Shown here: positions 31,190-53,933 of the stretch, piece after piece | Layout: every line of letters begins with the position of its first letter | Numbering within the stretch: position 1 is the stretch's first letter | NCBI GenBank assembly: GCA_965541615.1 | Contig: CBEUCJ010000004.1 | Span: 21,167-85,166 of the forward strand | Direction: 5' to 3' | Source: an uncultured bacterium | Lineage (GTDB): Bacteria; Omnitrophota; Gorgyraeia; Duberdicusellales; CBEUCJ01 | DNA length: 64,000 nucleotides | The notes under the pieces: generated by a model | The model's database searches: none | What the model saw: only the letters and a program-made list of their open reading frames with translations | Told to the model about the DNA's origin: nothing | Translations under genes and position numbers: made by a program

Positions 31190-31204
31190 AAAAGGAGAAA
31201 AGTC

Positions 31205-31912: not shown

Positions 31913-31930
31913 CTAATTCTAATTTTTATT

Positions 31931-33258: not shown

Positions 33259-33267
33259 ATATAAAAA

Positions 33268-34380: not shown

Positions 34381-34941
34381 GTATCGTAGAACCATAAGAA
34401 AATATAAAGATAAATCACTTTCAAAAAAAATAATAAAAAGGATTATTATAGCTGGAAAATGGGCTCCTTCTCCTCATAATTCTCAACCATGGTTATTTGT
34501 GATAATAAGGAATGATAAGCTTAAGGAGGAACTTTTAAATTTGTTAAATAGATCTTCAAAAGAATTTTTGGTAGGCGTTAGAGTATTATTCAAGAATACT
34601 ATACAAATAATAAAAGAAGCTCCACTTATAATTTTAGTATACAATACAAAATCTCTCTCTCAAAAAGTTAAAAAATTAGGGAACCTTATTTTTCTAATGC
34701 TTATATTTCAGAAATACAAGGAATATCTTCTGCCATACAAAATATGTATTTGATGGCTACTTCTTTAGGCATAGGTATGGCTTGGTTGATGTTCCCATTG
34801 TTGGTTAAGGGAAAGATCAATAGATTACTTAAGATAAAAAAATATGAATTAGTTGCAATTTTAACATTAGGTTATCCTGCTGAAAGAGGAAAACGTTTAA
34901 AAAGGAAATCTTTATCTGAAATAGTAAAATTTATAGAATGA
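34358..34941 (+). pseudogene. Nitroreductase-family gene interrupted by a -1 frameshift in an A6 run near 34670-34676
   Basis: N-terminal part (RRTIRKY…PSPHNSQPW) and C-terminal part (AIQNMYLMATSLGIGMAW) are in different frames; one extra A restores …VKKIREPYFSNAY…. Confidence 0.6.
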
Positions 34942-34955
34942 GAAAAATAGAACTC

Positions 34956-35150
34956 TATGCAAGAAAGCACGATGCAATAATAAATAATAAATTGAAATGA
35001 AGATTAGAAGTTTAGTTGATGAATGTTATTTAGCAGAGACAGAATTGAAGGGTTCTTGATTGTTGAAAGAATGATAAGCTAGGAGGATAGTGGCACTTCT
35101 TTTGAAAGAGATGGATGTAAGGTTTATTGTAGAAGATTTATTAATCGTGT
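34956..35150 (+). pseudogene. Decayed ~190-nt duplicate of the 5' end (including ATG) of the CrtI-like gene at 36613
   Basis: By-eye alignment to 36612-36775 about 75-85% identical; frame contains stops (MQESTMQ*). Confidence 0.6.
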
Positions 35151-35170
35151 AAGACAAAAATAATTTGCTT

Positions 35171-36460: not shown

Positions 36461-36612
36461 GTTTTCTAAAAACACTAATATTTAATGTGGAAGACTTTAA
36501 GAAAGTATAAAATAGACAAGTTTCAAAATTAGATATTTTGCGAAAAAGAATGTTAGAAAAGTAAAATAATAAAAAAAGTGGTGAGGTAAAATTTGTATAT
36601 TATAAAAAACAC

Positions 36613-40470: not shown

Positions 40471-40737
40471 TTAAGAAAAAAAGCCAATCACATTTTTGGA
40501 GAGGTTAAAGTATTAGTTTTTGGCTCAGTTGTAAAAGGAGACTATCTTTCAAATAGGGATATAGACATTTTAATCATAACTGAAAATTTGCCTCAAGAAT
40601 TTTTTGAGCAAGTTAAATTAAAACAAAAATTATTAGAAGGTTTAGAAGAGAATCCTTTCCAGATACATCTTGCTGCTCCTCAAATGTATCAAAGATGGTA
40701 TAAGAATTTTATAAAAGATAATTATTTAGAAGTTTAA
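40471..40737 (+). pseudogene. N-terminally truncated nucleotidyltransferase (MNT) paralogue of the gene at 41139; no start codon in frame
   Basis: …VLVFGSVVKGDY…DIDILIITENLP…FQIHLAAP…, about 55% aa identity to 41139 product; frame opens right after a TAA. Confidence 0.5.
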
Positions 40738-40747
40738 GAGGTGTCAA

Positions 40748-41142
40748 ATGGACATTGGATTCTTGAAAGAGAGAGCAAATGAATTTTTTGAAGAAGCGCA
40801 AGAATTATTAAAGAAAAAGAAGTATAATCTTTCAGTTTTCAATTTAGAGCAAGCAATTCAATTATGGATAAAATACTTGATTGGCAAGAAAATAGGAGAT
40901 TGGCCTAAGACGCATTTTTTTCAGAATTAATTCCTCAATTAGCTCAGGTTTATGAGGAAGAAAAGATTTTAGAATTTTATAAAGAAAATGAACTATTTTT
41001 TGATAGTTTAGAAGATGCTCATTTTACTTCTCGGTATTTTCCAAAAAAATTCACTGAAAATGTTATATTAAAACTTTTTGAATATTCTAAAAAATTTTTT
41101 AAATTGATTAAAGAGACTATTAATGAAGATTTTTCCCTATGA
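40748..41142 (+). pseudogene. HEPN-domain gene with -1 frameshift in a T7 run (about 40912-40918)
   Basis: Two consecutive ORF pieces; T8 would give …KTHFFSELIPQLAQV… continuing to HFTSRYFP HEPN motif. Confidence 0.55.
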
Positions 41143-41495
41143 AGAAAAGTCTGGTCGATATAATTTTACCTATACATAAAAAAAAGGAGATGTACTTTAG
41201 GAATTATAAGTCTTATTGTCAAGAAATTAAAAGAATAGCAAAATGTTCTTTGAAAGAAGTAAGAGTGTTAGTGTTTGGTTCAGTGGTAAAAGATAAACAT
41301 ACTCCAAGTAGTGATATCGATGTTTTAATAATTTCTAATAACCTTCCTGAAGAATTTGAAGAGAGAGAAAAGATCAAGACAAATATTAAGTCAAAAATAG
41401 ACCCCTTTTCTCCATTTCAGCTCCATTTAGCCACACCTAAGGAATTTAAAGAATGGTATGAAAACTTTTTGAAAGGTAATTATCTAGAAATATAA
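41139..41495 (+). CDS. Minimal nucleotidyltransferase (MNT)
   Basis: VLVFGSVVKDKHTPSSDIDVLII NTase motif. Confidence 0.7.
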   Translation: MKKSLVDIILPIHKKKEMYFRNYKSYCQEIKRIAKCSLKEVRVLVFGSVVKDKHTPSSDIDVLIISNNLPEEFEEREKIKTNIKSKIDPFSPFQLHLATPKEFKEWYENFLKGNYLEI

Positions 41496-41546
41496 TTTTT
41501 TTAAAAAAATTTCAACTTGACAAAATACAGATTATAGTATATATTT

Positions 41547-41565
41547 GAAAATGAAAATCATTATC
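41547..41565 (+). promoter_or_regulatory. Fur box upstream of fur (17/19 match to GATAATGATAATCATTATC)
   Basis: GAAAATGAAAATCATTATC, 16 nt upstream of fur ATG; overlaps likely -10 region. Confidence 0.6.
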
Positions 41566-41580
41566 AATAAGGAGTGATCA

Positions 41581-42069
41581 ATGCCACACAGAAGGCATAG
41601 AAAAGGAATGATGTGGTGGCATATGAGGTTTATAGATGCAGGTTTTAGAATGACTTTGCCAAGACAAGCAATTATGGAGGTTTTAAGTAACACTACAGAG
41701 CATTTGAGTGCTGAAGAAATATACCTTAAAGTGCGCAAAAGATATCCTGGAATAGGACTTACAACTGTGTACAGAACTTTAGATATTCTAGTTAACATGG
41801 GACTCATATCTAAATTTGATTTTGGAGATGGCAGAGCACGTTATGAATTATCAGAGACTTCAAAGGGTGCAAAACCTCATCATCATCATTTGGTATGTAG
41901 AGAGTGTGGGAAAATAATAGATTATACAGAGTTTATAGATGATGAAGTAGAATTAATTAACAACATTCAGAAAAAACTTTCAGAAAAATATAACTTTAAG
42001 ATAACAAATCACATTATTCAATTTTATGGATTGTGTGATAAATGTCAGCAGAAGAATAAAGTAACGTAA
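41581..42069 (+). CDS. fur: Ferric uptake regulator family transcriptional regulator (Fur/Zur/PerR)
   Basis: Winged-helix N-terminus; HHHHLVCRECG and CDKC metal sites. Confidence 0.8.
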   Translation: MPHRRHRKGMMWWHMRFIDAGFRMTLPRQAIMEVLSNTTEHLSAEEIYLKVRKRYPGIGLTTVYRTLDILVNMGLISKFDFGDGRARYELSETSKGAKPHHHHLVCRECGKIIDYTEFIDDEVELINNIQKKLSEKYNFKITNHIIQFYGLCDKCQQKNKVT

Positions 42070-42088
42070 ATTTTTTTCTTTGGTAAAT

Positions 42089-42107
42089 GAAAATGATTAT
42101 CATTATT
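42089..42107 (+). promoter_or_regulatory. Second Fur-box-like site (16/19) immediately upstream of the aromatic small-protein operon
   Basis: GAAAATGATTATCATTATT, 21 nt upstream of ATG 42128. Confidence 0.5.
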
Positions 42108-42127
42108 AATAAAAGGGGGTGAGAAAA

Positions 42128-42355
42128 ATGAGAGGAAGAAATTTTTGGGGACCAGGATTTTGGAAATTTGGGTATTTAGGATATCCTTATTATCCAAGCT
42201 ATTTTGGATTTCCTTTTTTCTGGGGTAGAGGAAGAGGGAATCCATTTCCTTTTTGTAGATGGTTTCCATTTTTACCTCGTGGATGGTGGGCGATGCCATT
42301 CTTTTTAAGTATGTGGCAAAATATTTATCCATATCAAGGAGGAACTACAAAATGA
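42128..42355 (+). CDS. Small W/F/Y/P/G-rich protein 1 (75 aa; no coiled-coil tail)
   Basis: RBS GGGGGTG; about 45% aromatic+Pro+Gly; ORF-track start 42119 (GTG) replaced by ATG 42128. Confidence 0.55.
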   Translation: MRGRNFWGPGFWKFGYLGYPYYPSYFGFPFFWGRGRGNPFPFCRWFPFLPRGWWAMPFFLSMWQNIYPYQGGTTK

Positions 42356-42519
42356 TTTTTAGAGAAAGCTTTTTAAAATTTATTGATTCTAAATCTTTGC
42401 ATAATGATTCTGCTTACTTTGCTATACATTGGCCCTATTTTTGGAATAGGACTCTTATAGGAAAGAATGTTCAAAAAAAGAAAGAAGGAATAAAAGAAAA
42501 AGTTAAAAAAAGGAGGTGA
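42352..42519 (+). CDS. Small ORF (55 aa) with strong RBS, aromatic/basic
   Basis: GGAGG 8 nt upstream of ATG 42352; fills gap between neighbours. Confidence 0.35.
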   Translation: MIFRESFLKFIDSKSLHNDSAYFAIHWPYFWNRTLIGKNVQKKKEGIKEKVKKRR

Positions 42520-42755
42520 TAGTTATGCCTTTCGGAATGGGACCAGCTGGTTGGTTTTTAGCACCATACATTTATCCTCAGATTTTAAATTTTTATCAAA
42601 ATTTTCTAAGAATGTGGGGTTATCCATTTTATGGATTCTCAATGCCCTTTTATGGAGGTGATGAATTAAGTTACTTAAAACAATTAAAGCAGAATTTAGA
42701 ACTTCAGTTACAAGACATTGAAAGAAGGATTAAAGAATTAGAATCTACTACTTAA
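42516..42755 (+). CDS. Small W/F/Y/P/G-rich protein 2 with C-terminal coiled-coil (…LELQLQDIERRIKELEST)
   Basis: RBS GGAGGTGA; MPFGMGPAGWF… N-terminus; heptad-like C-terminus. Confidence 0.65.
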   Translation: MIVMPFGMGPAGWFLAPYIYPQILNFYQNFLRMWGYPFYGFSMPFYGGDELSYLKQLKQNLELQLQDIERRIKELESTT

Positions 42756-42777
42756 TAAAATAAGGAGGTGAGGGGAT

Positions 42778-43080
42778 ATGAGAGGTTATAGACATAGAAA
42801 TATGTATTATTTAACAGGATTACCTGGTTGGATGAGATTTGGATTTAGTCCTGGGTGGGGAGGTTTACCTCCTGGAGCTCAATATATGTTTACAGGAAAT
42901 TGGCCTACTCTGCAGGCAAATTCTTTATGGTCAAATATTTCTCAAAATGCAACATTTGATCCTTATAAAGTCTCTCAGATTAGTAAAGAGCAAGAGTTGC
43001 AGCTTTTAAAGCAACAGGCAGAAGCTTTAAAAGCTCAGCTTGAAAGAATAGAAAAAAGAGTTCAAGAGTTAGAGTCTTAA
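42778..43080 (+). CDS. Small W/F/Y/P/G-rich protein 3 with C-terminal coiled-coil (…LKAQLERIEKRVQELES)
   Basis: RBS GGAGGTGA; paralogue of the preceding two genes. Confidence 0.65.
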   Translation: MRGYRHRNMYYLTGLPGWMRFGFSPGWGGLPPGAQYMFTGNWPTLQANSLWSNISQNATFDPYKVSQISKEQELQLLKQQAEALKAQLERIEKRVQELES

Positions 43081-43115
43081 AAAGTTGTAAGTTTGTTTAA
43101 TAAAGGAGGGAGTTT

Positions 43116-43634
43116 ATGAAAATTTGCGTAACAGCTCAAGGAAATACTTTAGAATCTTTGGTAGATCCCAGATTTGGAAGAGCTCAATATTTTATAATTT
43201 ATGATACTGAGACTGATTCTTTTGAAAGTATCTTAAATCCAAATTTAAATCTATTTTCAGGAGCAGGAATTCAAAGTGCACAACTTATAGTACAAAAAGG
43301 AGTTCAAGTTTTAATTACAGGAAACGTGGGACCCAATGCTTTTAATGTATTAACAGCTGCTGGAATAAATATAATAACAGGTATAATGGGAGTATCAGTA
43401 AAGGAAGCTATAGAAAGATTTAAGAGAGGAGAGTTGAATTTTACTTTTTCTCCAACAGTCTCTAAACACTTTGGAGCTCAAATGTATCCACCAAACTTTG
43501 GGACGATGCCATATCAATTTCAAACTTCTAAAGCACAAGAACTTAATATGTTAAAACAACAACTTCAATTTTTAAAACAGCAGATCGAGATGATAAACCA
43601 GAGAATAAAGGAGTTAGAAAAAAATGAGCAATAA
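43116..43634 (+). CDS. NifB/NifX-fold protein ('dinitrogenase FeMo-cofactor-binding' domain) with a C-terminal aromatic+coiled-coil extension homologous to the preceding small proteins
   Basis: …DPRFGRAQYFIIYD…ITGNVGPNAF…; tail GAQMYPPNFGTMPYQF…LKQQLQFLKQQIEMINQRIKELE. Confidence 0.65.
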   Translation: MKICVTAQGNTLESLVDPRFGRAQYFIIYDTETDSFESILNPNLNLFSGAGIQSAQLIVQKGVQVLITGNVGPNAFNVLTAAGINIITGIMGVSVKEAIERFKRGELNFTFSPTVSKHFGAQMYPPNFGTMPYQFQTSKAQELNMLKQQLQFLKQQIEMINQRIKELEKNEQ

Positions 43635-43914
43635 AGCTACAGTCCTTAAAGAAATTTGTAGAGGATGTGGACTTTGTGCTTTTAGTTGTCCTCAGAATGC
43701 TATAACTATCATCTTTGGAAAAGCTGAAGTAGATAAATCTAAGTGTATAGGATGCAGAAGATGCATCCAAGTATGTCCTGTAAAAGCTATTGTAATCACT
43801 CCTTCTGTAAATAAAGAAGAAGTAGAGATTTTTAAAAAACAGGTTAGAAGATTAAAGGAGAGAATAACGACTGTTAACAGAAAGATAAAAGATTTATTAG
43901 AAAAAAGGAGGTGA
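43624..43914 (+). CDS. 2x[4Fe-4S] ferredoxin with C-terminal basic coiled-coil tail
   Basis: CRGCGLCAFSCP and CIGCRRCIQVCP; tail …RRLKERITTVNRKIKDLLEKRR. Confidence 0.75.
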   Translation: MSNKATVLKEICRGCGLCAFSCPQNAITIIFGKAEVDKSKCIGCRRCIQVCPVKAIVITPSVNKEEVEIFKKQVRRLKERITTVNRKIKDLLEKRR

Positions 43915-43917
43915 TTT

Positions 43918-44625
43918 TTGAAAGTAGCTATAGCTGTAGATAAAGGTAAAGTTTCAGCTCATTTTGGAAGATGTGAAGAGTTTGTCTTATTAGAAATAGA
44001 AGATTCAAAAGTAATCAGTAAAAAAATGATTAAAAATCCAGGACATAAACCTGGATTTCTACCTCAATTTTTAAAGGAGCTAAAAGTAGATGTAATAATC
44101 ACAGGAGGGATGGGTAAAAAAGCTTTAGAATTGTTTGAGAAAGCGCAAATAAAAGTTATTTTGGGGATCACAGGAGAAGTTGAAGACGTAATAAATGAGT
44201 TTTTGAAAGGTAATTTAAAAAGTAAGGAAAGTTTATGTACACGAGATACATTTAAAGAAACTGAAGTTAAGTATTATAAAGAAAAAGGTAGTAAGATTTG
44301 TATTACTTCTAAAGGAGATAGTTTAGATTCAGAGTTAGATCCTAATTTTGGAAGGTGCAACTATTTTATCATTTTTGATTTAGAGAGTTCAGATTACGAA
44401 GCTATAGAAAACCCTTATAAAGATTTACCTCAAGGAGCAGGGATAAGGAGCGCTCAATTTGTTATAGAAAAAAATGTAGATACTCTTTTAACAGGAGAAG
44501 TAGGTCCTCATGCTCAGGAAGTTTTACAGAAAGGCGGGGTTAATTTAATAAAAAGAATTTCAGGAAGAGTAAGAGAAGTAATTGAAGCGTTTAAAAAAGG
44601 AGGACCTAATTATGTGGGGCAATAG
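43918..44625 (+). CDS. Tandem NifB/NifX-fold domain protein (two 'FeMo-cofactor-binding'-like domains)
   Basis: Two repeats of …FGR(C)..F…D…ITGG/TGEVGP… pattern; TTG start with RBS GGAGGTGA. Confidence 0.6.
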   Translation: MKVAIAVDKGKVSAHFGRCEEFVLLEIEDSKVISKKMIKNPGHKPGFLPQFLKELKVDVIITGGMGKKALELFEKAQIKVILGITGEVEDVINEFLKGNLKSKESLCTRDTFKETEVKYYKEKGSKICITSKGDSLDSELDPNFGRCNYFIIFDLESSDYEAIENPYKDLPQGAGIRSAQFVIEKNVDTLLTGEVGPHAQEVLQKGGVNLIKRISGRVREVIEAFKKGGPNYVGQ

Positions 44626-44800
44626 AGAAGAAGATATCAATAGAATTCAGAGAGGACAAGGAAGGATGGGTAGAAGAGGTTTAGGTCCTGGAGGATTTTG
44701 TAAATGCTTAAGATGTGGCACAAGAATTCCTCATCAAAGAGGAACCCCTTGTTATACTTTAACTTGTCCTAACTGTGGGGCAAGGATGGTTAGAGAATAA
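44612..44800 (+). CDS. Small Gly/Arg-rich zinc-ribbon protein (CxC…CG…CPNCG)
   Basis: GRMGRRGLGPGGFCKCLRCG…CPNCG; ORF-track start 44582 would overlap upstream gene, ATG 44612 preferred. Confidence 0.5.
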   Translation: MWGNREEDINRIQRGQGRMGRRGLGPGGFCKCLRCGTRIPHQRGTPCYTLTCPNCGARMVRE

Positions 44801-44821
44801 TTTTGAAGTTTTTTGAAAAAA

Positions 44822-45673
44822 ATGAAAATATCTGTTGCCAGTGGAAAAGGAGGAGTAGGCAAAACCACAGTAGCTGTAGCTTTAGCAGATGTTTTGGTTT
44901 CATCAAAAAATGTGAATGTTTTGTTCTTAGATTGTGATGTAGAAGAACCAAATTCTTATTTTTTTATAAAACCTCAAATAACCCAAAAAATTCCAATCTA
45001 TACTCAGATTCCTCAGGTAGATAAAAATAAGTGTAATTTTTGTGCAAAATGTAGTAAAATTTGTGCTTATAATGCTATAGCAGTGGTGAAAACAGAGGTC
45101 TTAATATTTGATAATCTTTGTCATGGATGTGGAGCTTGTAGTTTTTTTTGTCCTCAAAAAGCAATAAAAGAAGTGAACAAAGAAATAGGATTTATTGAAA
45201 TAGGAGAAAAAGAAAATTTAAAATTTATTCATGGCAAATTGAAAATAGGACAAGCAATACCTACACCTTTAATTAAAGCTGTAAAAAGCTATATAAATGG
45301 TTTTGATTTTACTATAATAGATGCTCCTCCAGGAGCAAACTGTAGTGTAGTAGAATCTGTTAAGAACACAGATTTTTGTATTGTAGTTACAGAGCCTACC
45401 CCTTTTGGTTTAAGTGATATGATTCAGTTGACGCAGCTTTTAAAAAGGCTTGGTATTAAATTTGGAGTGATTATAAATAAAGAGAATTTAGGAGATGAAA
45501 GAGTTGAAAAGTTTTGCAAAGAAAATGATATTCCTATTCTACTAAAGATTCCTTTTCTGAGAGAAGTGAGTTTTCAAAGTGCAAAAGGTCAAATTTTAAC
45601 AAAAATCCTACCTGAGTATAAAAGAGAGTTTGACAAAGTTATAGAAAGAATTAAAGTTCTAAACTCAAATTAG
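44822..45673 (+). CDS. MinD/ParA-superfamily P-loop ATPase with inserted 2x[4Fe-4S] ferredoxin domain
   Basis: SGKGGVGKTT; CNFCAKCSKIC and CHGCGACSFFCP. Confidence 0.8.
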   Translation: MKISVASGKGGVGKTTVAVALADVLVSSKNVNVLFLDCDVEEPNSYFFIKPQITQKIPIYTQIPQVDKNKCNFCAKCSKICAYNAIAVVKTEVLIFDNLCHGCGACSFFCPQKAIKEVNKEIGFIEIGEKENLKFIHGKLKIGQAIPTPLIKAVKSYINGFDFTIIDAPPGANCSVVESVKNTDFCIVVTEPTPFGLSDMIQLTQLLKRLGIKFGVIINKENLGDERVEKFCKENDIPILLKIPFLREVSFQSAKGQILTKILPEYKREFDKVIERIKVLNSN

Positions 45674-45687
45674 GAGGGGGGTAGAGT

Positions 45688-47034
45688 ATGTTTATTAATA
45701 CTGATATTCTAATAATTGGCGCAGGTCCTGCTGGAATAGTAACAGCAACTACTGCACGTAAATACTATCCTGAGAAGAAAATTTTGATAGTAAAAAATGT
45801 AGAAAGAGGAGTAATCCCTTGTGGAATTCCTTACATGTTTTATAGTTTAAAGAATCCTGAGGAAAATGAGTTAAAGATTACTCCTTTAGAAAAGAAAAAT
45901 ATTCAGGTAATTATAGATGAAGTAGTAAACATAGATAGAATTCAGAAGATAGCCTATACAAAGAATGGAGATATGATAAATTATGAGAAATTAATAATGG
46001 CAACAGGCTCTCTTCCTCAAAGTTTGCCTATTCCTGGAATAGAGAAAGAAGGAGTTTATTTGATTTATAAAGATATGGAATATCTCAGAAAAGTGGTAGA
46101 AAAAGTAAAGAATTCAAAGAATGTCTTAATAATAGGAGGAGGGTTCATTGGATGTGAAGTGGCAGATGAGATTTCCAAAATAGAAGGAGTAAATGTGTAT
46201 TTAGTAGAAGTTTTACCTAATTTGTTAGCAAATTCTTTTGATCCTGAATTTTCTAAAATCGTAGAAGAAAAGTTAGTTTCAGAAGGTGTCAAGGTCTTAA
46301 CTAATACTAAAGTAGTAGAGATTATAGGTAAAGAAAAGGTCGAAGAAGTCCTGTTATCTGATGGAAGAAAAATAAAAGTAGATGTGGTGATTTTAGGGAT
46401 AGGTTCTGTTCCTAATACAGAGTTAGCTCAAAAAATAGGTTTAGAGATAGGTAAAAGAAAGGGGATAAGAGTAGATGAATACATGAGGACTTCAGATCCA
46501 AACATATTTGCAGTCGGAGACTGTGCAGAAAAAAGAGATTTTTTTACACGTAAACCTGTTCAAGTAATGTTAGCTTCTACTGCTACAGCTGAAAGCAGAA
46601 TCTGTGGAGCAAATATTTATAAATTAAAAGTAATCCGTGAAAATAAAGGTACAATCGCTATCTATTCAACATTTATAAATGGAGTAGTTTTAGGTTCTGC
46701 AGGTTTAACTGAAAAAACTGCAAATTTAGAAGGATTTGAGATTATAACAGGCATTGCAGAAGCTCCAGACAAACACCCTAAAACTTTACCTTCAGCAAAC
46801 AAAATAAAAGTAAAGCTTATTTTCTCAAAACATTCAGGGATTATTTTAGGAGGACAGGTTGCAGGAGGCATGAGTTGTGGAGAGTTAATAAATTTAATAG
46901 GTGTAGCTATTCAAAAAAGAATGTCTTTTACAGAATTAGAGACTTTACAGATGGCTACACACCCTTATTTAACACCAGCACCTACAATGTATCCTGTAGT
47001 TTTAGCTGCTCAAGATGCAGCGAATAAGATTTAG
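45688..47034 (+). CDS. Pyridine nucleotide-disulfide oxidoreductase of the CoA-disulfide reductase / NADH oxidase (single-Cys) family
   Basis: IIGAGPAG FAD motif, redox PCGIPY Cys, IIGGGFIGCE NAD motif. Confidence 0.75.
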   Translation: MFINTDILIIGAGPAGIVTATTARKYYPEKKILIVKNVERGVIPCGIPYMFYSLKNPEENELKITPLEKKNIQVIIDEVVNIDRIQKIAYTKNGDMINYEKLIMATGSLPQSLPIPGIEKEGVYLIYKDMEYLRKVVEKVKNSKNVLIIGGGFIGCEVADEISKIEGVNVYLVEVLPNLLANSFDPEFSKIVEEKLVSEGVKVLTNTKVVEIIGKEKVEEVLLSDGRKIKVDVVILGIGSVPNTELAQKIGLEIGKRKGIRVDEYMRTSDPNIFAVGDCAEKRDFFTRKPVQVMLASTATAESRICGANIYKLKVIRENKGTIAIYSTFINGVVLGSAGLTEKTANLEGFEIITGIAEAPDKHPKTLPSANKIKVKLIFSKHSGIILGGQVAGGMSCGELINLIGVAIQKRMSFTELETLQMATHPYLTPAPTMYPVVLAAQDAANKI

Positions 47035-47040
47035 AGAGAG

Positions 47041-47916
47041 ATGAATCCAAAAGAGTTAGTTATAATTAGTGGAAAAGGTGGCACAGGTAAAACTACTCTT
47101 GCTTTGGGTTTAGTTTCCATTTTTAAAAATATAGTAATTGCAGATTGTGATGTAGATACTCCTGATTTACATTTGGTATTAAAGCCTTATAAGACAGAAG
47201 AAAAAGGAATATTCAAAGAGAGGTTTACAGCTTTCATAAATAAAGACAGATGTATAGAATGCGGAAAGTGTAGACAAGTTTGTAGATTTGAAGCTATAAG
47301 CAAAGATTTAGTGGTGAACTCTTTAGAATGTCAGGGTTGTAGATTTTGTGAATTAGTGTGTCCTCAAAAAGCAATAGAGATGAGAGAAGAGATTACAGGA
47401 AACTGGCAGATTTCTCAAACAAGATTTGGTCCTTTTGTTTGGGCTCAACTTACTAATTTAGGTGAGAATTCAGGAAAATTGGTAAGTTTAATAAGAGAGA
47501 AGGCAAGAAATCTTGCTAAAAAAATAGGTTCAGAATTAGTCATCATAGATGGTTCACCAGGTATTGGATGTCCAGTAATAGCTTCTATAACTGGTGCAAA
47601 TTTTTGCGTAGTAGTCACAGAGCCTAGCTTATCAGCTTTACATGATGCTGAGAGAGTTATAAGACTTACTGAACATTTTAGAATAAAAGCGGGTTTAGTG
47701 ATAAATAAATACGATTTAAATCCAGAGTTAACTCAAAAGATCCAAGATTGGGCTCAAAAAGAAGAGGTTGCTATTTTAGGAAAAATAAAGTTTAAAGAGT
47801 CAGTAATAAAAGCTATGTTGGAGTTAAAAACCGTAATAGAATTTCCAGATCAAGAAATAAAATCTACTTTTTACGAGATTGCATCTAAAATAAAAGAAAG
47901 ATTAGAAGCTAGTTAA
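47041..47916 (+). CDS. Second MinD-type ATPase with inserted 2x[4Fe-4S] ferredoxin domain
   Basis: SGKGGTGKTT; CIECGKCRQVC and CQGCRFCELVCP. Confidence 0.8.
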   Translation: MNPKELVIISGKGGTGKTTLALGLVSIFKNIVIADCDVDTPDLHLVLKPYKTEEKGIFKERFTAFINKDRCIECGKCRQVCRFEAISKDLVVNSLECQGCRFCELVCPQKAIEMREEITGNWQISQTRFGPFVWAQLTNLGENSGKLVSLIREKARNLAKKIGSELVIIDGSPGIGCPVIASITGANFCVVVTEPSLSALHDAERVIRLTEHFRIKAGLVINKYDLNPELTQKIQDWAQKEEVAILGKIKFKESVIKAMLELKTVIEFPDQEIKSTFYEIASKIKERLEAS

Positions 47917-47930
47917 TTGGAATAATTATT

Positions 47931-48755
47931 ATGCAAGGAGTAGATAATTTTTCCCAAATAAAAATGCAGATAAAAGAAAATCTTTCTCAAGTAAAATATA
48001 AATTACTTATTATCAGTGGAAAAGGAGGGGTAGGCAAAACCACAGTAGCTGTAAATTTAGGATATAGTTTAGCTGTTAAAAAATATAAAGTTGGAATATT
48101 AGATGTAGATATTCATGGTCCAAATGTGCCTAAAATGTTAGGGATAGAAAATCAAAGACTTACAGCCTCTGAAAGTGGAAGAATAGAACCCGTTCAGGTT
48201 TTACCTAACTTAAAAGTAGTGAGTTTAGCTTTAGTAGGTGAGGATCCTGAAAAACCAGTCATATGGCGAGGACCTTTAAAAACAGCAGTAATTAGACAGT
48301 TTTTAGCTGAAAGTAATTGGCAAGATTTAGATTTCTTAATTGTAGACTCTCCTCCTGGAACAGGAGATGAACCTTTAAGTGTTTGTCAATTGATCTGTGA
48401 GTTAGATGGAGCAATAGTAGTAGCTACTCCTCAAGAAGTAGCTCTTTTAGATGTTAAAAAGAGTATTTTATTTGCTAAAGAGTTAGGTGTCCCAATAATT
48501 GGAATAGTTGAGAATATGAGTTTCTTTATATGTCCTCATTGCCAAAAAAAGATAGATTTACTCACAACACAAAAAATTGAAGAAATTATTCAAAAGACTG
48601 GTATTCAGATTTTAGGAAGACTTCCTTTTGATATTGATGTGTTAAGATTTCAAGATAGAGGAAGACCTTTTGTTTATTTTAATAAAGATTCAGAAGCAGC
48701 CAAAATTATGGATAGAATTACAGATAAAATTGTAGATTTTTTAGTAAAAAAATGA
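47931..48755 (+). CDS. Mrp/ApbC/NBP35-family Fe-S cluster carrier ATPase
   Basis: SGKGGVGKTT plus C-terminal CPHC motif. Confidence 0.8.
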   Translation: MQGVDNFSQIKMQIKENLSQVKYKLLIISGKGGVGKTTVAVNLGYSLAVKKYKVGILDVDIHGPNVPKMLGIENQRLTASESGRIEPVQVLPNLKVVSLALVGEDPEKPVIWRGPLKTAVIRQFLAESNWQDLDFLIVDSPPGTGDEPLSVCQLICELDGAIVVATPQEVALLDVKKSILFAKELGVPIIGIVENMSFFICPHCQKKIDLLTTQKIEEIIQKTGIQILGRLPFDIDVLRFQDRGRPFVYFNKDSEAAKIMDRITDKIVDFLVKK

Positions 48756-49651
48756 GAACGTATTTAGATTGTATTCCTTGTTTTTTTAAGCAAGCATTAG
48801 AAGCTTCAAGGATTTCTGGAGCGAGCAGAATAACACAAAAAAAAGTGTTAGATGAATTAGCAAAAATTTTGCCTAAGTTTTCTTTAAACACACCTCCTCC
48901 TTTGATGGGTAGAGTTATTTATAAATTGGTTAGTAAACTTACTAAAAATTTAGATCCTTATCGTGAGATAAAAATAAAAAGTAATGAATTAGCTTTAAAT
49001 ATTTATCCAAAGTTAAAGAGAAAAGTAGCACTTTCAAAAGATAGATTAAAAAAAGCTATAGAGTTAGCTATTGCAGCAAATTCTATAGATTATGGAGTAA
49101 GAAACTCTTTGAATATAGAAGAAGAATTAAAAAGAATTTTAAGAGAAGAAGAAAAGACTATTAAAGTGGAAAATAAAAGATTTTTTGAGTATGAGGAATT
49201 TAAAAAAGCTTTAAATAAAGCAAAGACTATTCTTTATTTAGGTGATAATGCAGGAGAGGTGGTTTTTGATAGAGTTTTGATTGAAGAGATTAAAAAAATA
49301 GATAAGAATAAAAAAATAATTTATGCAGTAAAATCTAAACCTATTATAAATGATGCTTTAGTTGAAGATGCTTTACAAGCAGGCATTCATAAAGTAGCTG
49401 AGATAATCCTTTCAGGAGTAGATGCTCCAGGCACTATTCTTTCTTTATGTTCAAAAGAATTTTTAAAAGTTTATAAAAATGCAGATCTAATAATCAGTAA
49501 AGGACAAGGAAACTTTGAAGCTTTATCAGACAAAAAGCATCCAATATTCTATTTGTTTATGGCAAAGTGTAAAACTGTGGCCAACCACTTAGGATGTAAA
49601 CTTAGAGATATAATTCTGTTTCATAATTTAAATAATAAAGTGTTAAAATAA
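48752..49651 (+). CDS. DUF89 (ARMT1-like damage-control phosphatase) family protein
   Basis: N-terminal DCIPCFF motif and overall DUF89-like sequence. Confidence 0.55.
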   Translation: MRTYLDCIPCFFKQALEASRISGASRITQKKVLDELAKILPKFSLNTPPPLMGRVIYKLVSKLTKNLDPYREIKIKSNELALNIYPKLKRKVALSKDRLKKAIELAIAANSIDYGVRNSLNIEEELKRILREEEKTIKVENKRFFEYEEFKKALNKAKTILYLGDNAGEVVFDRVLIEEIKKIDKNKKIIYAVKSKPIINDALVEDALQAGIHKVAEIILSGVDAPGTILSLCSKEFLKVYKNADLIISKGQGNFEALSDKKHPIFYLFMAKCKTVANHLGCKLRDIILFHNLNNKVLK

Positions 49652-49666
49652 AAAGGAGGTAGAACT

Positions 49667-49927
49667 ATGCCTACATATGAATATGAATGCCAAAATTGTA
49701 AGTTTAAATTTGAAAAATTTCAAAATATGACAGATACTCCTTTAGAAACTTGTCCTAAGTGTGGAGGAAGATTAAAAAGGGTAATAAGTGGAGGGGCAGG
49801 GGTTATTTTTAAAGGACCAGGTTTTTATGCAACAGATTACAAAAATACTTCTGTTAGAACTTGCTGTGGTAGAACAGAACCTTGTGAAAAACCTCCTTGT
49901 GCAGATGATGGAGTTTGCAAACGTTAA
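49667..49927 (+). CDS. FmdB-family zinc-ribbon protein
   Basis: MPTYEYECQNC…CPKCGG; RBS AAGGAGG. Confidence 0.65.
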   Translation: MPTYEYECQNCKFKFEKFQNMTDTPLETCPKCGGRLKRVISGGAGVIFKGPGFYATDYKNTSVRTCCGRTEPCEKPPCADDGVCKR

Positions 49928-49936
49928 TTTAGAGAA

Positions 49937-50971
49937 ATGATAGGAGAAGTAATACTTCACAATTTTAAACATGCAGGAATGATAACAGTCTTTGTCTTCA
50001 TAATGATGATATTTACAGATTATCTTAATGTTTTAACAAAAGGCAGAATGAGTAAGATGATAAAAGGAGGTTTATTTAGACAATATCTTATAACTTCATT
50101 TTTAGGAGCAACACCTGGGTGTTTAGGGTCTTTTATGAATGTGTCTTTTTATGTACATGGATTAATCTCTTTTGGAGCAATAGTAGGGGGAATGATTGCT
50201 ACTTGTGGAGACGAAGCTTTTGTAATGCTAGCAGTTATTCCTAAACAAGCTTTGATATTATTTGGTATCCTTTTTGTTTTAGGAGTAATCTCTGCATACA
50301 TTGTAGATAAAATAGTTCCTCTTTTAAAGATTAAGCCTTGTAAAGTGTGTGAACTTTCAAATTTACATCTGCAACCTGAATGTAGATGTCTTGAATTTAA
50401 AGAAATAATCGAGCACATAAAAAAGATGTCTTTACAAAGATTTTTACTTTTGTTCCTTTTGTTTATATTTCTTTATGGATTTGTTGGAGGGATAATTGGT
50501 CCTTCTGAATGGAATTGGAAGAGGATTACTTTTGTTTCTCTATTGAGTTTAGCTATTTTTATAGTAATTACAGTTCCTGACCATTATTTAGAAGAACATA
50601 TTTATTCTCATATTTTTAAAACGCATATTTGGAAAGTATTCTTGTGGAGTTTTGGGGCATTAGTTTTGACAGATTTAGGTTTACATTTCTGGGATTTAAA
50701 GGCATTTATAAGTCAGCATATGATATGGGTGCTTTTAATTGCAACTTTTGTAGGAATAATTCCAGAATCTGGACCAAATTTAGTTTTTGTTATGATGTTC
50801 TCAAAAGGATTAATACCTTTTTCTGTGCTTTTGGCAAATTCAATAGTTCAGGATGGTCACGGTATGTTACCTTTGTTATCTTATACAATAAAAGATTCAA
50901 TGTTGGTAAAATTGTTTAATTTAATTATTGGTTTAGGAGTAGGAACTTTTTTATACTTTCTGGGATTTTAA
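49937..50971 (+). CDS. Polytopic membrane protein with internal two-fold repeat (putative permease)
   Basis: About 10 TM helices; halves share G(L/I)(I/P)xFxxxxAxxIxxxG pattern. Confidence 0.45.
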   Translation: MIGEVILHNFKHAGMITVFVFIMMIFTDYLNVLTKGRMSKMIKGGLFRQYLITSFLGATPGCLGSFMNVSFYVHGLISFGAIVGGMIATCGDEAFVMLAVIPKQALILFGILFVLGVISAYIVDKIVPLLKIKPCKVCELSNLHLQPECRCLEFKEIIEHIKKMSLQRFLLLFLLFIFLYGFVGGIIGPSEWNWKRITFVSLLSLAIFIVITVPDHYLEEHIYSHIFKTHIWKVFLWSFGALVLTDLGLHFWDLKAFISQHMIWVLLIATFVGIIPESGPNLVFVMMFSKGLIPFSVLLANSIVQDGHGMLPLLSYTIKDSMLVKLFNLIIGLGVGTFLYFLGF

Positions 50972-50997
50972 TTTTTAATTAAAAAGGAGGTGTAGCT

Positions 50998-51639
50998 TTG
51001 AAGATAACCATAATTTCTGATAATACTACAGCTTTTAGAGATTTAAAATCTGAATGGGGGTTTTCTGCTTTAATTGAAGTAGAAAACACTCCTTTAATAC
51101 TCTTTGATACAGGAGCTGATAGTCAAATTCTTTTACATAATATGGAGAAGTTAAAGATTTCACCTACAAGTATTCAATGCGTTTTTATCTCTCATTCACA
51201 TTGGGATCATACAGGAGGTTTAAGAGACTTTTTAAAGTTGAATCCAGAAGTAAAATTATATGTACCTGAGGATTTTTCTGATGATGTTAGAGCAAAAGAA
51301 GTAATAAAAGTTAAAGATTCTACAAAAATATATGAAAATGTATTCTCAACAGGAACTCTCAAAGGAATAGAGCAGTCTCTGGTAATAAAAAAAGGAGAAG
51401 AGGTAGTAATAATTGTAGGATGTTCTCACAGTGGAGTAGGAGAGATTTTAAAAGAGAGTAAAAAATTTGGAAGACCCAAAGCTTTGATAGGAGGTTTACA
51501 TGGATTTTCTGAGTTTTCTTTAATTAAAGATTTAGATTTAATATGCGCTACCCATTGCACTCAATATAAAGATAAAATAAGAGAGTTGTATCCAGAAAAA
51601 TTTATAGAAGGAGGAGCAGGCAGAGTTATAGAGATATAA
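50998..51639 (+). CDS. MBL-fold metallo-hydrolase
   Basis: SHSHWDHTGG motif; TTG start with RBS AGGAGGTG. Confidence 0.65.
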   Translation: MKITIISDNTTAFRDLKSEWGFSALIEVENTPLILFDTGADSQILLHNMEKLKISPTSIQCVFISHSHWDHTGGLRDFLKLNPEVKLYVPEDFSDDVRAKEVIKVKDSTKIYENVFSTGTLKGIEQSLVIKKGEEVVIIVGCSHSGVGEILKESKKFGRPKALIGGLHGFSEFSLIKDLDLICATHCTQYKDKIRELYPEKFIEGGAGRVIEI

Positions 51640-51658
51640 AGAGGAGGTGTTAAAATCT

Positions 51659-51976
51659 ATGAGTATTAATCTTACAGATTCTAATTTTGAGTCTGAAGTC
51701 TTAAAATCTGAACTCCCAGTTTTGGTAGATTTTTGGGCTGAGTGGTGTATGCCCTGTCAAATTTTAGCACCTGTTATTGAAGAAATAGCTACAGAGTATC
51801 AAGGGAAGTTGAAAGTGTGTAAATTAAATGTAGATCAAGCTCCACAAATAGCTGCTAAATACCAAATTATGGGTATACCTACTTTAATTCTTTTTAAAGA
51901 TGGTCAAATTAAAGAAAAAATTGTAGGAGTAGTTCCAAAAGAAATAATTAAAGAAAAAATTTCACCTTATATTTAA
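51659..51976 (+). CDS. Thioredoxin with non-canonical WCMPC active site
   Basis: VLVDFWAEWCMPCQ in place of WCGPCK; thioredoxin fold sequence otherwise canonical. Confidence 0.75.
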   Translation: MSINLTDSNFESEVLKSELPVLVDFWAEWCMPCQILAPVIEEIATEYQGKLKVCKLNVDQAPQIAAKYQIMGIPTLILFKDGQIKEKIVGVVPKEIIKEKISPYI

Positions 51977-51992
51977 AAAGGGGGGATAGATT

Positions 51993-52208
51993 ATGCCAAT
52001 CTATACTTTTGTCTGTAAAGATTGCAAAGAAAAATTTGATTTATTGATAGGAGTAACTATGGATAAACCTGAACTTAAATGTAAAAAGTGCGGTAGTAAA
52101 AATATTGAAAGAATAATAAGTAGTTTTAATGTAGGTGAATCTTCTAAAAATACTCAGACATCTTCTGGTTCAGGGTGTCCAGGAGGAGTGTGTCCAACTT
52201 GCTTTTAA
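51993..52208 (+). CDS. FmdB-family zinc-ribbon protein (paralogue 2)
   Basis: MPIYTFVCKDC…CKKCG…C-rich tail. Confidence 0.6.
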   Translation: MPIYTFVCKDCKEKFDLLIGVTMDKPELKCKKCGSKNIERIISSFNVGESSKNTQTSSGSGCPGGVCPTCF

Positions 52209-52217
52209 AAATTAATT

Positions 52218-52535
52218 GTGTTTGAGTTTGAACAAATAGATAAAGCTAGAAGAATCTTAAAGTTAGAAGAATGTGCAACTTTAGAGGAGATAAAAAAAGC
52301 TTACAAAGAATTAGCTAAAAAATACCATCCAGATACCTGCAAAGCTTCTAACAAAGCAAAATGTGAAGAAAAGTTTAAAGAAATAAACTGGGCATATCAA
52401 CTCCTTTTAAAATATTGTCAAAATTATAAATATTCTTTTAAAAAAGAAGATGTAGAAAAACAAAAAATCTCTCCCCAATATTATCAACATTTAAAAAGAT
52501 TCTATGATGGCTGGTGGGCTGATTTAGAAATTTAA
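52218..52535 (+). CDS. J-domain (DnaJ-like) protein
   Basis: KKAYKELAKKYHPD HPD motif; GTG start. Confidence 0.6.
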   Translation: MFEFEQIDKARRILKLEECATLEEIKKAYKELAKKYHPDTCKASNKAKCEEKFKEINWAYQLLLKYCQNYKYSFKKEDVEKQKISPQYYQHLKRFYDGWWADLEI

Positions 52536-52552
52536 TTATTTACTTTTAAAAA

Positions 52553-53182
52553 ATGGGGACGAATAATATATTTGATTTGTATTATGATGAATATGATAGA
52601 TGGTATGAAAAAAATGAGTTTGCTTATCTATCAGAATTGGAAGCACTTAAAAAAGTTTTACCTAAAAAAGGAAGAGGATTAGAGATTGGAGCAGGTACTG
52701 CCAGATTTACTAAGCCTTTAAATATTTGGGTAGGAATCGATCTTTCAAAGAATATGGCAAAGATCGCTAAAGAAAGAGGAGTAAGAATTATTGTGAGTAG
52801 AGCAGAAGAACTACCTTTTAAAGATTCAATTTTTGACTATGTAGCTATTATATTTGCCTTGTGTTTTGTTGATGAGCCTTTGAAGATGTTAAGAGAAGCT
52901 AAAAGAGTTTTGAAAAGAAGAGGTAAAATCATTATAGGTATAATCGATAAAGAAAGTTTTTTAGGAAAAGCTTATCAAATAAAGAAAAGTATTTTTTATA
53001 GCAGAGCAAAATTTTTTAGTGTAAAAGAAGTAACAGATATTTTGCAGACTATGGGTTTTGACAGATTTTCATATTATCAGACTATCTTCAATTTTCCTCA
53101 AGAAATTAAGAACATCCAAAAACCTCAAAAAGGATTTGGTAAAGGAGCTTTTGTTGCAATTTCAGCAGAGCTCATAATATAA
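52553..53182 (+). CDS. Class I SAM-dependent methyltransferase
   Basis: LEIGAGTARF motif I. Confidence 0.65.
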   Translation: MGTNNIFDLYYDEYDRWYEKNEFAYLSELEALKKVLPKKGRGLEIGAGTARFTKPLNIWVGIDLSKNMAKIAKERGVRIIVSRAEELPFKDSIFDYVAIIFALCFVDEPLKMLREAKRVLKRRGKIIIGIIDKESFLGKAYQIKKSIFYSRAKFFSVKEVTDILQTMGFDRFSYYQTIFNFPQEIKNIQKPQKGFGKGAFVAISAELII

Positions 53183-53260: not shown

Positions 53261-53842
53261 ATGTTTACAGGGATTATTCAAGAAGTAGGTACAATAAAAA
53301 ACATTGAAAAGAAAGCTTCTTTTTGGAGGTTAGGAATCTTATCTACAAAAGTTTATAAAGATATTAATTTATCTCAAAGTGTTTGTGTGAATGGGGTATG
53401 CCTTACATTAACAAAAAAAGAAAATAACGTTCTTTTTTTTGAAGTAATTAAACCCACTTTAGAGAATACCAATTTAAAAAGATTAAGACCATTGTGTAAA
53501 GTTAATTTAGAATTGCCTTTAAAACCTGATGATAGATTAGGAGGTCATTTTGTTTTAGGGCATATAGATTGTGAAACTCAAATAAAAAGTATTATAAAAA
53601 AGAACGGATTTTATAGTTTTGAAATAAAAACACCACTTCAATTTAAAAAATTTTTAATAGAAAAAGGCTGCATAGCTATAGAAGGAATAAGTTTAACTGT
53701 GCAAAAAGTCTTAAGTAAAAGTTTTATAGTCAATATAATCCCTTTTACTTTTAATCATACAAATTTAAACACAAAAAGACCAGGTAGTTGGGTAAATTTG
53801 GAATTTGATTATCTTCTTAAAGCAGTTTTGAAAAACACTTAA
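53261..53842 (+). CDS. ribE: Riboflavin synthase alpha subunit
   Basis: MFTGIIQEVG and second lumazine-binding repeat. Confidence 0.85.
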   Translation: MFTGIIQEVGTIKNIEKKASFWRLGILSTKVYKDINLSQSVCVNGVCLTLTKKENNVLFFEVIKPTLENTNLKRLRPLCKVNLELPLKPDDRLGGHFVLGHIDCETQIKSIIKKNGFYSFEIKTPLQFKKFLIEKGCIAIEGISLTVQKVLSKSFIVNIIPFTFNHTNLNTKRPGSWVNLEFDYLLKAVLKNT

Positions 53843-53857: not shown

Positions 53858-53933
53858 CGGGGCGTAGCTCAGCCAGGTTTAGAGCACTTGGTTCGGGACC
53901 AAGAGGTCGCAGGTTCAAATCCTGTCGCCCCGA
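53858..53933 (+). tRNA. tRNA-Pro (anticodon CGG), CCA not encoded
   Basis: Hand-folded cloverleaf: 7-bp acceptor CGGGGCG/CGCCCCG, D-arm GCTC…GAGC, anticodon stem CTTGG/CCAAG with loop TTCGGGA, T-loop TTCAAAT; closely resembles E. coli tRNA-Pro(CGG). Confidence 0.85.

Follow-up and report, generated by a model that had tools for sequence, protein, structure and literature searches.

The stretch of DNA described here (the window) comprises 64,000 nucleotides of contig CBEUCJ010000004.1 from an uncultured bacterium; in homolog searches of two of its small proteins, A1 and A3, the nearest relatives are labelled Omnitrophota. From position 41517 to 53182 the window carries, all on the plus strand, the regulator gene fur and 20 more genes found by calling of open reading frames (ORFs). 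An earlier reading of this DNA, made from its letters alone (the sequence-only reading), had counted at least 18 co-directional genes between fur and the riboflavin synthase gene ribE, and the ORF list gives 18 at 42119-52208, with a 55-aa gene (42352-42519) added to those listed before. The regulator, its predicted operators and the core genes are arranged as follows.

41517-41545, plus strand: fur promoter, sigma-70-like, TTGACA-17-TATATT (11 of 12 consensus matches)
41552-41566, plus strand: predicted Fur box 1, TGAAAATCATTATCA, an exact 7-1-7 match directly downstream of the fur -10 element
41581-42069, plus strand: fur, 162 aa (PF01475, E 8e-36)
42088-42102, plus strand: predicted Fur box 2, TGAAAATGATTATCA, an exact match 26 nt before the A1 start codon
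42128-42355, plus strand: A1, 75 aa, rich in aromatic residues, Gly and Arg, motif GRGNPFPFCRWFPxLPRGWW
42352-42519, plus strand: S55, 55 aa, basic; its start overlaps the A1 stop (ATGA), ribosome-binding site AGGAGG
42525-42755, plus strand: A2, with MPFGMGPAGWF at its aromatic N-terminus and the coiled-coil module at its C-terminus
42778-43080, plus strand: A3, DUF5320-type, motif R-x3-Y-x-TG-x-PGW-x-RFG-x-SPGW and the coiled-coil module
43116-43634, plus strand: N1, orange-protein-like NifX-fold domain (PF02579, E 8e-25), disordered linker and DUF5320 coiled-coil tail
43624-43914, plus strand: Fd, 96 aa, 2x[4Fe-4S] ferredoxin (Fer4 families, weak DUF5320 match) with the C-terminal coiled-coil module
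43918-44625, plus strand: N2, tandem NifX-fold protein (PF02579 twice, E 1e-48; HFGRCE, NPGHKPGFLP)
44612-44800, plus strand: Z, 62-aa Cys-rich mini-protein, GPGGxCxCxxCG..H..C..CPxCG, six Cys and one His invariant
44813-45673, plus strand: M1, MinD-type ATPase with a 2x[4Fe-4S] insert, Orp3/Orp4-like (CbiA/ParA and Fer4 families; GKGGVGKT; two CxxCxxCxxxC)
47041-47916, plus strand: M2, second MinD-type ATPase with a 2x[4Fe-4S] insert (CbiA/ParA and Fer4 families; two CxxCxxCxxxC)
47931-48755, plus strand: Mrp, Mrp/NBP35 Fe-S carrier (PF10609, E 3e-91; GKGGVGKT, CPHC)

Pfam searches agreed with the sequence-only reading on every enzyme-like protein. The NifX/NifB fold that it had seen three times corresponds to Nitro_FeMo-Co domains, one in N1 and two in N2, and its ferredoxin, two MinD ATPases with Fer4 inserts, Mrp, DUF89, FmdB, permease, CMPC thioredoxin and CoADR-like assignments all held. 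None of A1, S55, A2, A3 and Z matched a Pfam family at threshold. On the evidence of its genes, the cluster is a Fur-linked system of the kind represented by the orange-protein (ORP) complex and by IssA, with two uncharacterised conserved families, the DUF5320-type proteins and Z, as integral parts.

The gene cluster recurs across phyla

The cluster was compared among 83 loci, 80 of them drawn from one genome per species and the set completed with assembly contexts; ORFs were assigned to window proteins by best phmmer hit. The loci span more than 10 bacterial and archaeal phyla, and the genes flanking them vary from one to the next. The bacterial hosts are metagenome-assembled genomes (MAGs) labelled Omnitrophota, Planctomycetia, WOR-3, TA06, Aerophobetes, Auribacterota, Firestonebacteria, Aminicenantes, KSB1, Thermodesulfovibrionales, Dehalococcoidia and Desulfobacterota, and among those from archaea are Bathyarchaeia, Nitrososphaeria, Thermoplasmatales, Methanocellaceae and ANME. 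From locus to locus the genes tend to return in the order Fur-(DUF5320 or tailed NifX)-N2-N1-(Fd)-Z-(methyltransferase)-M1-(Ox)-M2-(Mrp)-(DUF89)-(Zn ribbon)-(metallo-beta-lactamase)-(thioredoxin)-(Zn ribbon)-(DnaJ)-(methyltransferase), where Ox is the CoADR-like flavoprotein.

Commonest among the 83 loci are the MinD-ferredoxin ATPases (65), which in most loci occur as the pair M1 and M2, followed by N2 (64), Z (52), small DUF5320-type proteins (47) and Fur (40). Mrp is found in 36, the metallo-beta-lactamase-fold protein in 31, the methyltransferase in 26 and the first Zn ribbon in 21. DUF89 (17), Ox (15), DnaJ (11), thioredoxin (7) and the ArsP_2 permease (3) are the rarest. The view of the sequence-only reading that the block is a functional unit is supported by this gene order, which returns in many phyla, and the aromatic small proteins do co-occur with NifX-like and MinD-ferredoxin genes.

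The association also holds in the opposite direction. When distant A3-type proteins from KSB1, Chloroflexi, ANME-1 and Thermoplasmatales were looked up in their own genomes, all four contexts were NifX/MinD-ferredoxin/Mrp clusters, which upholds the earlier inclusion of the aromatic proteins in the system. One of the four contains a CDF-transporter-NifX fusion, and another, the KSB1 locus L086, contains fur and ArsP_2. The fusion (L089, 11705-12940, from a Thermoplasmatales MAG) joins a CDF transporter with Cation_efflux and ZT_dimer domains to a NifX-like domain inside a DUF5320/NifX/MinD-ferredoxin cluster, with a divergent DUF134 regulator gene and a radical-SAM gene adjoining it.

A cluster-linked Fur and its predicted operators

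Best family matches and closest PDB relatives of the regulator are Fur proteins. Against NCBIfam it scores 140 bits with the Bacillus-type Fur model, 106 with E. coli Fur, 101 with PerR and 44 with Zur, all under the equivalog cut-offs. The 7-1-7 motif TGAWAATNATTWTCA occurs at exactly two sites in the 64 kb, 41552-41566 and 42088-42102, with 0.02 expected, and none of 100 shuffled windows held two or more exact sites. Judging from the Fur, PerR and Zur boxes of B. subtilis, we take the TGA-N9-TCA half-sites of these operators to mark a Fur-type 7-1-7 box; the PerR-type box, TTATAAT-N-ATTATAA, and the Zur-type box differ from it. Both boxes lie at or after a core promoter, a geometry that suggests repression by metal-loaded Fur, and box 1 has the geometry of autoregulation. 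The two sequence features of a Fur regulon, a PF01475 regulator and predicted 7-1-7 operators in the promoter region, are both present.

The boxes are conserved. A relative (locus L001) whose proteins are 67-96% identical to those of the window keeps both, box 1 with one mismatch and box 2 identical. Scanning 85 loci (1.16 Mb) for TGATAATNATTATCA with at most 2 mismatches gave 55 matches, 33 of which sit in the 15.6 kb (1.3% of the sequence) beside cluster-linked fur genes; at no more than 1 mismatch the figure is 12 of 13. Across phyla the boxes usually lie 9-37 nt upstream of the fur start codon and 17-32 nt downstream of the stop codon, and a Thermodesulfovibrionales locus has exact consensus boxes on both sides of fur. 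The sequence-only reading had noted one Fur-box-like site at the head of the block and tied the cluster to Fur. Two exact boxes flank the gene, fur adjoins the cluster in 40 of 83 loci, and both claims come out strengthened.

E. coli sufABCDSE is a Fur-repressed Fe-S biogenesis operon. The present cluster resembles it in having a predicted Fur operator at the promoter of Fe-S carrier genes, so that Fe-S machinery would be made when iron is scarce. It differs in lacking SufBCD, SufS or IscU homologs, with NifX-fold, MinD-ferredoxin and Mrp proteins in their stead, and in having the regulator gene as its own first gene.

By eye, no sigma-54 -24/-12 element was seen upstream of A1. Sigma-54 genes accompany the cluster elsewhere: the KSB1 locus has an OrpR-like PAS-sigma54 activator upstream (5645-7363) and fur inside the cluster (12183-12677), and in an Omnitrophota locus (L085, 5171-8943) rpoN and a sigma-54 response regulator stand directly upstream of fur.

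DUF5320-type coiled-coil proteins and the mini-protein Z

The small ORFs are real genes, because their ratios of nonsynonymous to synonymous substitution against the relative's orthologs (A1 0.16, S55 0.32, A2 0.06, A3 0.09, Z 0.14) indicate purifying selection. The aromatic protein A3 has 339 homolog cluster representatives, many with a precomputed PF17253 (DUF5320) annotation. Fourteen of its columns (R7, Y11, T13, G14, P16, G17, W18, R20, F21, G22, S24, P25, G26 and W27) are invariant in bacteria and archaea alike, and by this alignment the A3 motif is specific and goes beyond mere unusual composition. In the AlphaFold2 model of A3 the motif has a predicted local distance difference test score below 50 and gives no fold information. 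The PF17253 profile, with a gathering threshold of 27 bits, scores the N1 tail at 27.5, A3 at 26.7 and Fd at 20.7, and finds no match in A1 or A2.

What joins these proteins is a C-terminal module, approximately ELxxLKQQxxxLKxQ[LI]ExIxxRIKELE, that ends A2, A3, N1 and the ferredoxin. Its a/d heptad positions are hydrophobic at 78-80% in all four, and AlphaFold2 predicts a helix at residues 70-99 of A3 and 139-171 of N1. A hidden Markov model (HMM) of the module found 114 ORFs in 68 loci, in which five kinds of N-terminus are joined to it: the NifX domain (57 ORFs), ferredoxin, the A3-type motif, the A2-type MPFGMGPxGWF and the canonical start of DUF5320 proteins, MPRGDGTGPxGxGPMTGRxAGYCAGY, with GRG repeats behind it. 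A1 has only 8 detectable homologs and its wider links rest on shared motifs; the A1-related motif CRWFPWLPRWWWTG turns up again among archaeal members of the cluster and in coiled-coil fusions such as P0128, and through common motifs and fusions of this kind both A1 and A2 are linked to the DUF5320 family. For S55 an ortholog was found in the close relative only.

The start of Z was placed at 44612, behind AAGGAGG, instead of the earlier 44582. Its family counts 964 representative homologs. The representative library also has proteins about 1,000-1,500 aa long (P0249, P0250 and P0261) in which the Z domain is repeated 3-5 times.

Relationship to the ORP complex and to nitrogenase chaperones

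The sequence-only reading had held that the combination of genes has no described counterpart. This is true only in part. The core matches the Desulfovibrio ORP complex (PMC6345978, PMC8359166), and a NifX domain with a cationic-aromatic tail is known from IssA (PMC5524996). The Fur-linked recurring gene order, the membership of small DUF5320-type proteins with a common coiled coil, and the conserved Z, which has no Pfam family, do look new. In the literature searched, DUF5320 is named in only two papers, both unrelated, and there is nothing on Fur control of such clusters. Searches on Fur regulon with NifX, iron limitation with dinitrogenase iron-molybdenum cofactor and Fur, COG1149/COG1433, and NifX with MinD, ferredoxin and Mrp returned nothing relevant.

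In D. vulgaris and D. alaskensis the ORP complex contains Orp3, Orp4, Orp5, Orp8 and Orp9, the last being MrpORP (PMC6345978, PMC8359166), and MrpORP passes Fe-S clusters to Orp3/Orp4 in vitro (PMC6345978). N1 resembles Orp8/orange protein in its single NifX/Di-Nase domain. Its residues 2-113 match PDB entry 2WFB in sequence (E 1.4e-23), and its AlphaFold2 model superposes on that structure with a template modelling score of 0.92 and a root-mean-square deviation of 0.8 A at 43% identity. Judged by architecture alone, M1 and M2 resemble Orp3 and Orp4, two paralogous MinD-type ATPases each with two [4Fe-4S] motifs. The carrier at 47931-48755 shows the Mrp/NBP35 (ApbC) signature of a deviant Walker A, GKGGhGK[ST], with CXXC. 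By family it comes closest to the P-loop part of MrpORP, scoring 340.8 bits with NF041136 (cut-off 450) over profile positions 1-250, and the first domain of N2 is of the MrpORP Di-Nase type (positions 265-365 of the same NCBIfam profile, 139.6 bits). Like the ORP genes, the cluster is confined to anaerobes.

The differences are also clear. The MrpORP fusion is absent here, and its halves are split into two genes, Mrp (1-250) and N2 (265-365). The Desulfovibrio genes form two divergent operons governed by sigma-54, OrpR and IHF, whereas here there is one co-directional cluster headed by fur and Fur boxes; no sigma-54 activator gene was found in its flanks, though OrpR-like activators do adjoin the related loci L085 and L086. 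In this cluster a DUF5320 coiled-coil tail is attached to the orange-protein homolog, and the small DUF5320 proteins, Z, the tailed ferredoxin, DUF89, the metallo-beta-lactamase-fold protein, the CoADR-type flavoprotein and thioredoxin are extras.

The chaperones of the nitrogenase iron-molybdenum cofactor (NifX, NafY and the C-terminal part of NifB) share the PF02579 fold and the non-covalent binding of a complex metal-sulfur cluster. A role in nitrogenase maturation was considered and rejected. No nifB radical-SAM, nifEN or nifHDK genes lie nearby and the NifX/NafY fold match is weak; in a fold search N1 matched orange protein at E 4e-14 and NifX/NafY at E ~3e-4.

Relationship to IssA

IssA of Pyrococcus furiosus consists of a NifX domain and a cationic, aromatic, Gly-rich tail and stores thioferrate; the tail has a published pI of 10.7, 20% aromatic residues, 21% Gly and one Cys (PMC5524996). 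The N-terminal domain of N1 belongs to the same family (IPR003731/PF02579), and in the N1 family it is followed by a disordered, cationic segment rich in Gly and aromatic residues. A1 has an IssA-tail-like composition, with 36% F+W+Y, 16% Gly, 13% Pro, pI 10.3, zero acidic residues and a single Cys. N1 has more than 3,000 homologs, many of them built as a NifX domain, a linker and a coiled coil.

Thermococcales-type IssA orthologs were recovered from metagenomes through the peptide encoded by a published primer. Their tails have a Pro-rich stretch, then (GWGRG)n, then LGYCPWTG..RRNWFARYFGWW. When an HMM of these tails was run against 8,600 ORFs, the (GxGRG)n linkers of N1-family proteins ranked first. 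The metallo-beta-lactamase family of the cluster is also found 1-2 kb from the Thermococcales issA-like genes (E 1e-27). In these loci (L090-L098) a further NifX-domain gene, whose product has a (GMGRG)n tail, stands behind each issA-like gene, and the metallo-beta-lactamase gene, of COG1237 type, lies 1-2 kb further.

Unlike IssA, N1-type tails end in a coiled coil; the window's aromatic and cationic segments sit in separate small proteins; and the metagenomic issA-like loci are without MinD-ferredoxin, Mrp and fur genes in the flanks examined. The closest physiological parallel is Methanococcus voltae: two IssA-clade NifX proteins rise there together with FeoAB when the cells sense Fe(II) limitation on FeS2 (PMC8516115, PMC9431491).

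Accessory genes and extent of the unit

The remaining genes of the block are as follows.

45688-47034, plus strand: Ox, flavoprotein of the CoA-disulfide/persulfide reductase or NADH-oxidase type (Pyr_redox_2; CoADR/Nox type, active-site Cys aligned)
48752-49651, plus strand: DUF89/ARMT1-like metal-dependent phosphatase (PF01937, E 2.5e-69)
49667-49927, plus strand: FmdB-type zinc-ribbon protein 1, Zn_ribbon_8 (PF09723)
49937-50971, plus strand: ArsP_2 permease with 10 transmembrane segments (PF11449; NCBIfam 'arsenic efflux' subfamily above cut-off)
50998-51639, plus strand: metallo-beta-lactamase-fold protein of the kind accompanying NifX-like genes (Pfam; missing from the earlier list)
51647-51976, plus strand: thioredoxin, WCMPC (PF00085, E 1e-32)
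51993-52208, plus strand: FmdB-type zinc-ribbon protein 2, Zn_ribbon_8 (PF09723; 17 of 83 loci)
52218-52535, plus strand: J-domain protein (PF00226; at the cluster end in 11 of 83 loci)
52553-53182, plus strand: class I S-adenosylmethionine-dependent methyltransferase (PF08241; inside or at the cluster end in 26 of 83 loci)

By synteny, the putative unit extends from 41517, at the fur promoter, as far as the end of the methyltransferase gene at 53182, and the J-domain protein and methyltransferase genes probably still belong to it. The ArsP_2 gene also occurs in L086. ArsP_2, thioredoxin and S55 are possible chance neighbours. The gene ribE is not counted in the unit because there is no Fur box before it. 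A terminator scan found no intergenic terminator inside the block, and a promoter scan found no clear promoter between fur and A1. Rfam returned a single tRNA at 53858-53933 and no riboswitch or small RNA in the block. Within the A1 coding sequence, at 42281-42301, there is a terminator-like hairpin with a T-run behind it; transcription beyond fur and A1 could be attenuated there, unless the match is due to chance.

An iron-regulated system for handling metal-sulfur clusters?

We judge it an evenly balanced proposition that the block is an ORP-type metallocluster-handling system under its cluster-linked Fur, that is, an iron-regulated assembly for handling or storing Fe-S (metal-sulfide) material. 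Under this proposal, Fur would leave both operators when free Fe(II) is low and the operon would be transcribed. Mrp would assemble or carry [4Fe-4S] clusters and load the two MinD-ferredoxin ATPases and the ferredoxin, and the NifX-fold proteins would hold labile, non-covalently bound iron-sulfide species. The common coiled coil would gather the NifX protein, the ferredoxin, A2 and A3, and perhaps A1 via its aromatic motif, into one multimeric particle, in which the cationic-aromatic segments would enclose anionic Fe-S material in the way suggested for the tail of IssA. Loading, release or positioning may be driven by the ATPases. The CoADR-type reductase, thioredoxin, DUF89, metallo-beta-lactamase-fold protein and permease could be accessories that differ between lineages and provide reductant or sulfide or transport metal. 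Overall, the system would buffer and deliver Fe-S in sulfidic, Fe(II)-poor conditions.

A more specific version, which we regard as doubtful, is that the DUF5320-type proteins, the NifX-fold proteins and the tailed ferredoxin co-assemble through the coiled coil into a protein-scaffolded iron-sulfide particle, a relative in bacteria and archaea of the IssA thioferrate nanoparticle, which the MinD ATPases load, unload or position and a dedicated Fur controls. If this were true, it would amount to a widespread, previously unrecognised 'organelle' of anaerobes for Fe-S storage and delivery, and would give the ORP complex a function.

The storage and traffic of iron and sulfide in strict anaerobes are largely obscure, the ORP complex has been without an assigned function since 2011, and IssA is known from one archaeal order only. 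Here one conserved gene set, found in more than 10 mostly uncultivated phyla, joins ORP-type genes, IssA-like tails and a regulator whose operators we take to be of the iron-Fur type. It also singles out, as integral members, two uncharacterised families with sharply conserved motifs, the DUF5320-type coiled-coil proteins and the 6-Cys Z.

Several observations weigh against an iron-regulated Fe-S system. The main tension is that the repressor-type Fur boxes of this operon predict expression at low iron, whereas P. furiosus makes IssA under plentiful iron and sulfide. The published criteria for the IssA clade (supplement of PMC5524996) ask for a pI of at least 9, fewer than 5 Cys and a Gly content of 20% or more over the last 40 residues. 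N1 of the window has pI 7.8, 1 Cys and 0% Gly in its last 40 residues, which form the coiled coil, and it has no GRG repeat; many of its homologs do have tails with 17-26% Gly, but ahead of the coiled coil. The Pfam DUF5320 profile found no match in the metagenomic Thermococcales IssA-type tails, and in sequence terms the similarity to IssA tails is one of repeats and composition, with formal homology of IssA tail and DUF5320 not established. The D. gigas orange protein binds [S2MoS2CuS2MoS2] non-covalently (PMC6345978), a Mo-Cu-S rather than an Fe-S cluster, and for the Desulfovibrio ORP complex, whose function is unassigned, a part in cell division was suggested (PMC6345978, PMC8359166). Half of the loci, all archaeal ones included, have no fur. 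Finally, the plus strand carries 65 of the 66 ORFs of at least 110 aa in the window, with short gaps everywhere, so that co-direction and tight packing are weak evidence for an operon. The sequence-only reading overstated the weight of the packing, which is typical of the whole window, and two of its particulars did not survive. Not all gaps are 20 nt or less (fur-A1 58, A3-N1 35, ArsP2-MBL 26 and A2-A3 22 nt), and a strong GGAGG-type ribosome-binding site precedes only about 11-12 of the 20 genes (~60%), not almost all of them.

The same genes can be read in other ways. M1 and M2 belong to the MinD/ParA superfamily, and coiled-coil partner proteins are typical of ParA/MinD systems. An ORP-type complex with a spatial job is therefore conceivable, although we think it unlikely: the MinD-type ATPases would serve division, polarity or cargo positioning, the Fe-S clusters would be redox or iron sensors and the DUF5320 proteins cytoskeleton-like adaptors. 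The cell-division proposal was made for the D. vulgaris complex, whose MrpORP is found at one cell pole (PMC6345978, PMC8359166). However, Fur control kept across phyla points to iron rather than to the cell cycle, there are no division genes in the neighbourhood, and one would not expect a pure positioning system to include NifX-fold proteins that bind clusters, together with an Mrp carrier, a ferredoxin and either a metal permease or a CDF fusion. It is quite unlikely, in our view, that the regulator works as a peroxide or redox sensor in the manner of PerR and the operon serves oxidative-stress repair of Fe-S proteins through thioredoxin, the CoADR/NADH-oxidase-type protein, the J-domain protein and Mrp. 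The block does hold these genes, rubrerythrin, desulfoferrodoxin and flavodiiron-type genes adjoin the cluster in three loci (L003, L004 and L087), the Desulfovibrio orp operons respond to redox potential (PMC8359166), and the regulator, with its 101 bits against PerR models, falls under every NCBIfam Fur cut-off. Yet Fur proteins are what it matches best, both by family and in the PDB, thioredoxin and Ox, found in 7 and 15 of the 83 loci, stand outside the core as accessories, and the TGA-N9-TCA operators kept across phyla are, we presume, of Fur type.

The 43% identity of the N1 domain to the Mo-Cu-S-binding D. gigas protein (PMC6345978) and the presence of the ArsP_2 permease would suit the handling of a non-iron thiometallate (Mo, W or Cu sulfide), with ArsP_2 as a 'heavy-metal exporter' for detoxification or storage. 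This is very unlikely given that Fur is linked to the cluster in 40 of 83 loci and the permease to only 3; in addition, no molybdate or tungstate transport genes or ModE-type genes were seen in the contexts read. That the genes are mere neighbours in a compact, single-strand genome, with no functional unit at all, is scarcely credible. The strand bias and short gaps just described would allow it, as would the lack of promoter or terminator evidence delimiting an operon, but the gene order recurs in dozens of loci of unrelated phyla while the flanks differ, and the association is reciprocal, with DUF5320 proteins leading back to NifX/MinD-ferredoxin clusters. Chance juxtaposition is refuted for the core genes by these synteny data.

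Surroundings of the cluster

Downstream, ribE (53261-53842) follows the cluster after 78 nt, and ribF (62431-63360) lies 9 kb further. Upstream, the region 40588-41495, between a histidine kinase gene and fur, looks like an inserted HEPN/MNT toxin-antitoxin module, duplicated and partly decayed. Its parts are a nucleotidyltransferase gene at 41139-41495, a HEPN gene at 40748-40930 that is cut down to 60 aa where the domain has 117 positions, and, at 40588-40737, a 49-aa fragment resembling a nucleotidyltransferase C-terminus; the module is absent from L001. The kinase gene (38053-40206, 7TM-GAF type) itself follows a fatty-acid/polyketide-like set at 29212-38052, made up of two ketoacyl synthases, a FabA-like dehydratase, a ketoreductase, an NAD_binding_4 acyl reductase, a GMC oxidoreductase and an amine-oxidase-type flavoprotein, and L001 has the same set upstream of fur. 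The GC content is ~30%, and GC skew is positive in every 2-kb bin except 6001-8000, where the single minus-strand gene (5769-8843) lies.

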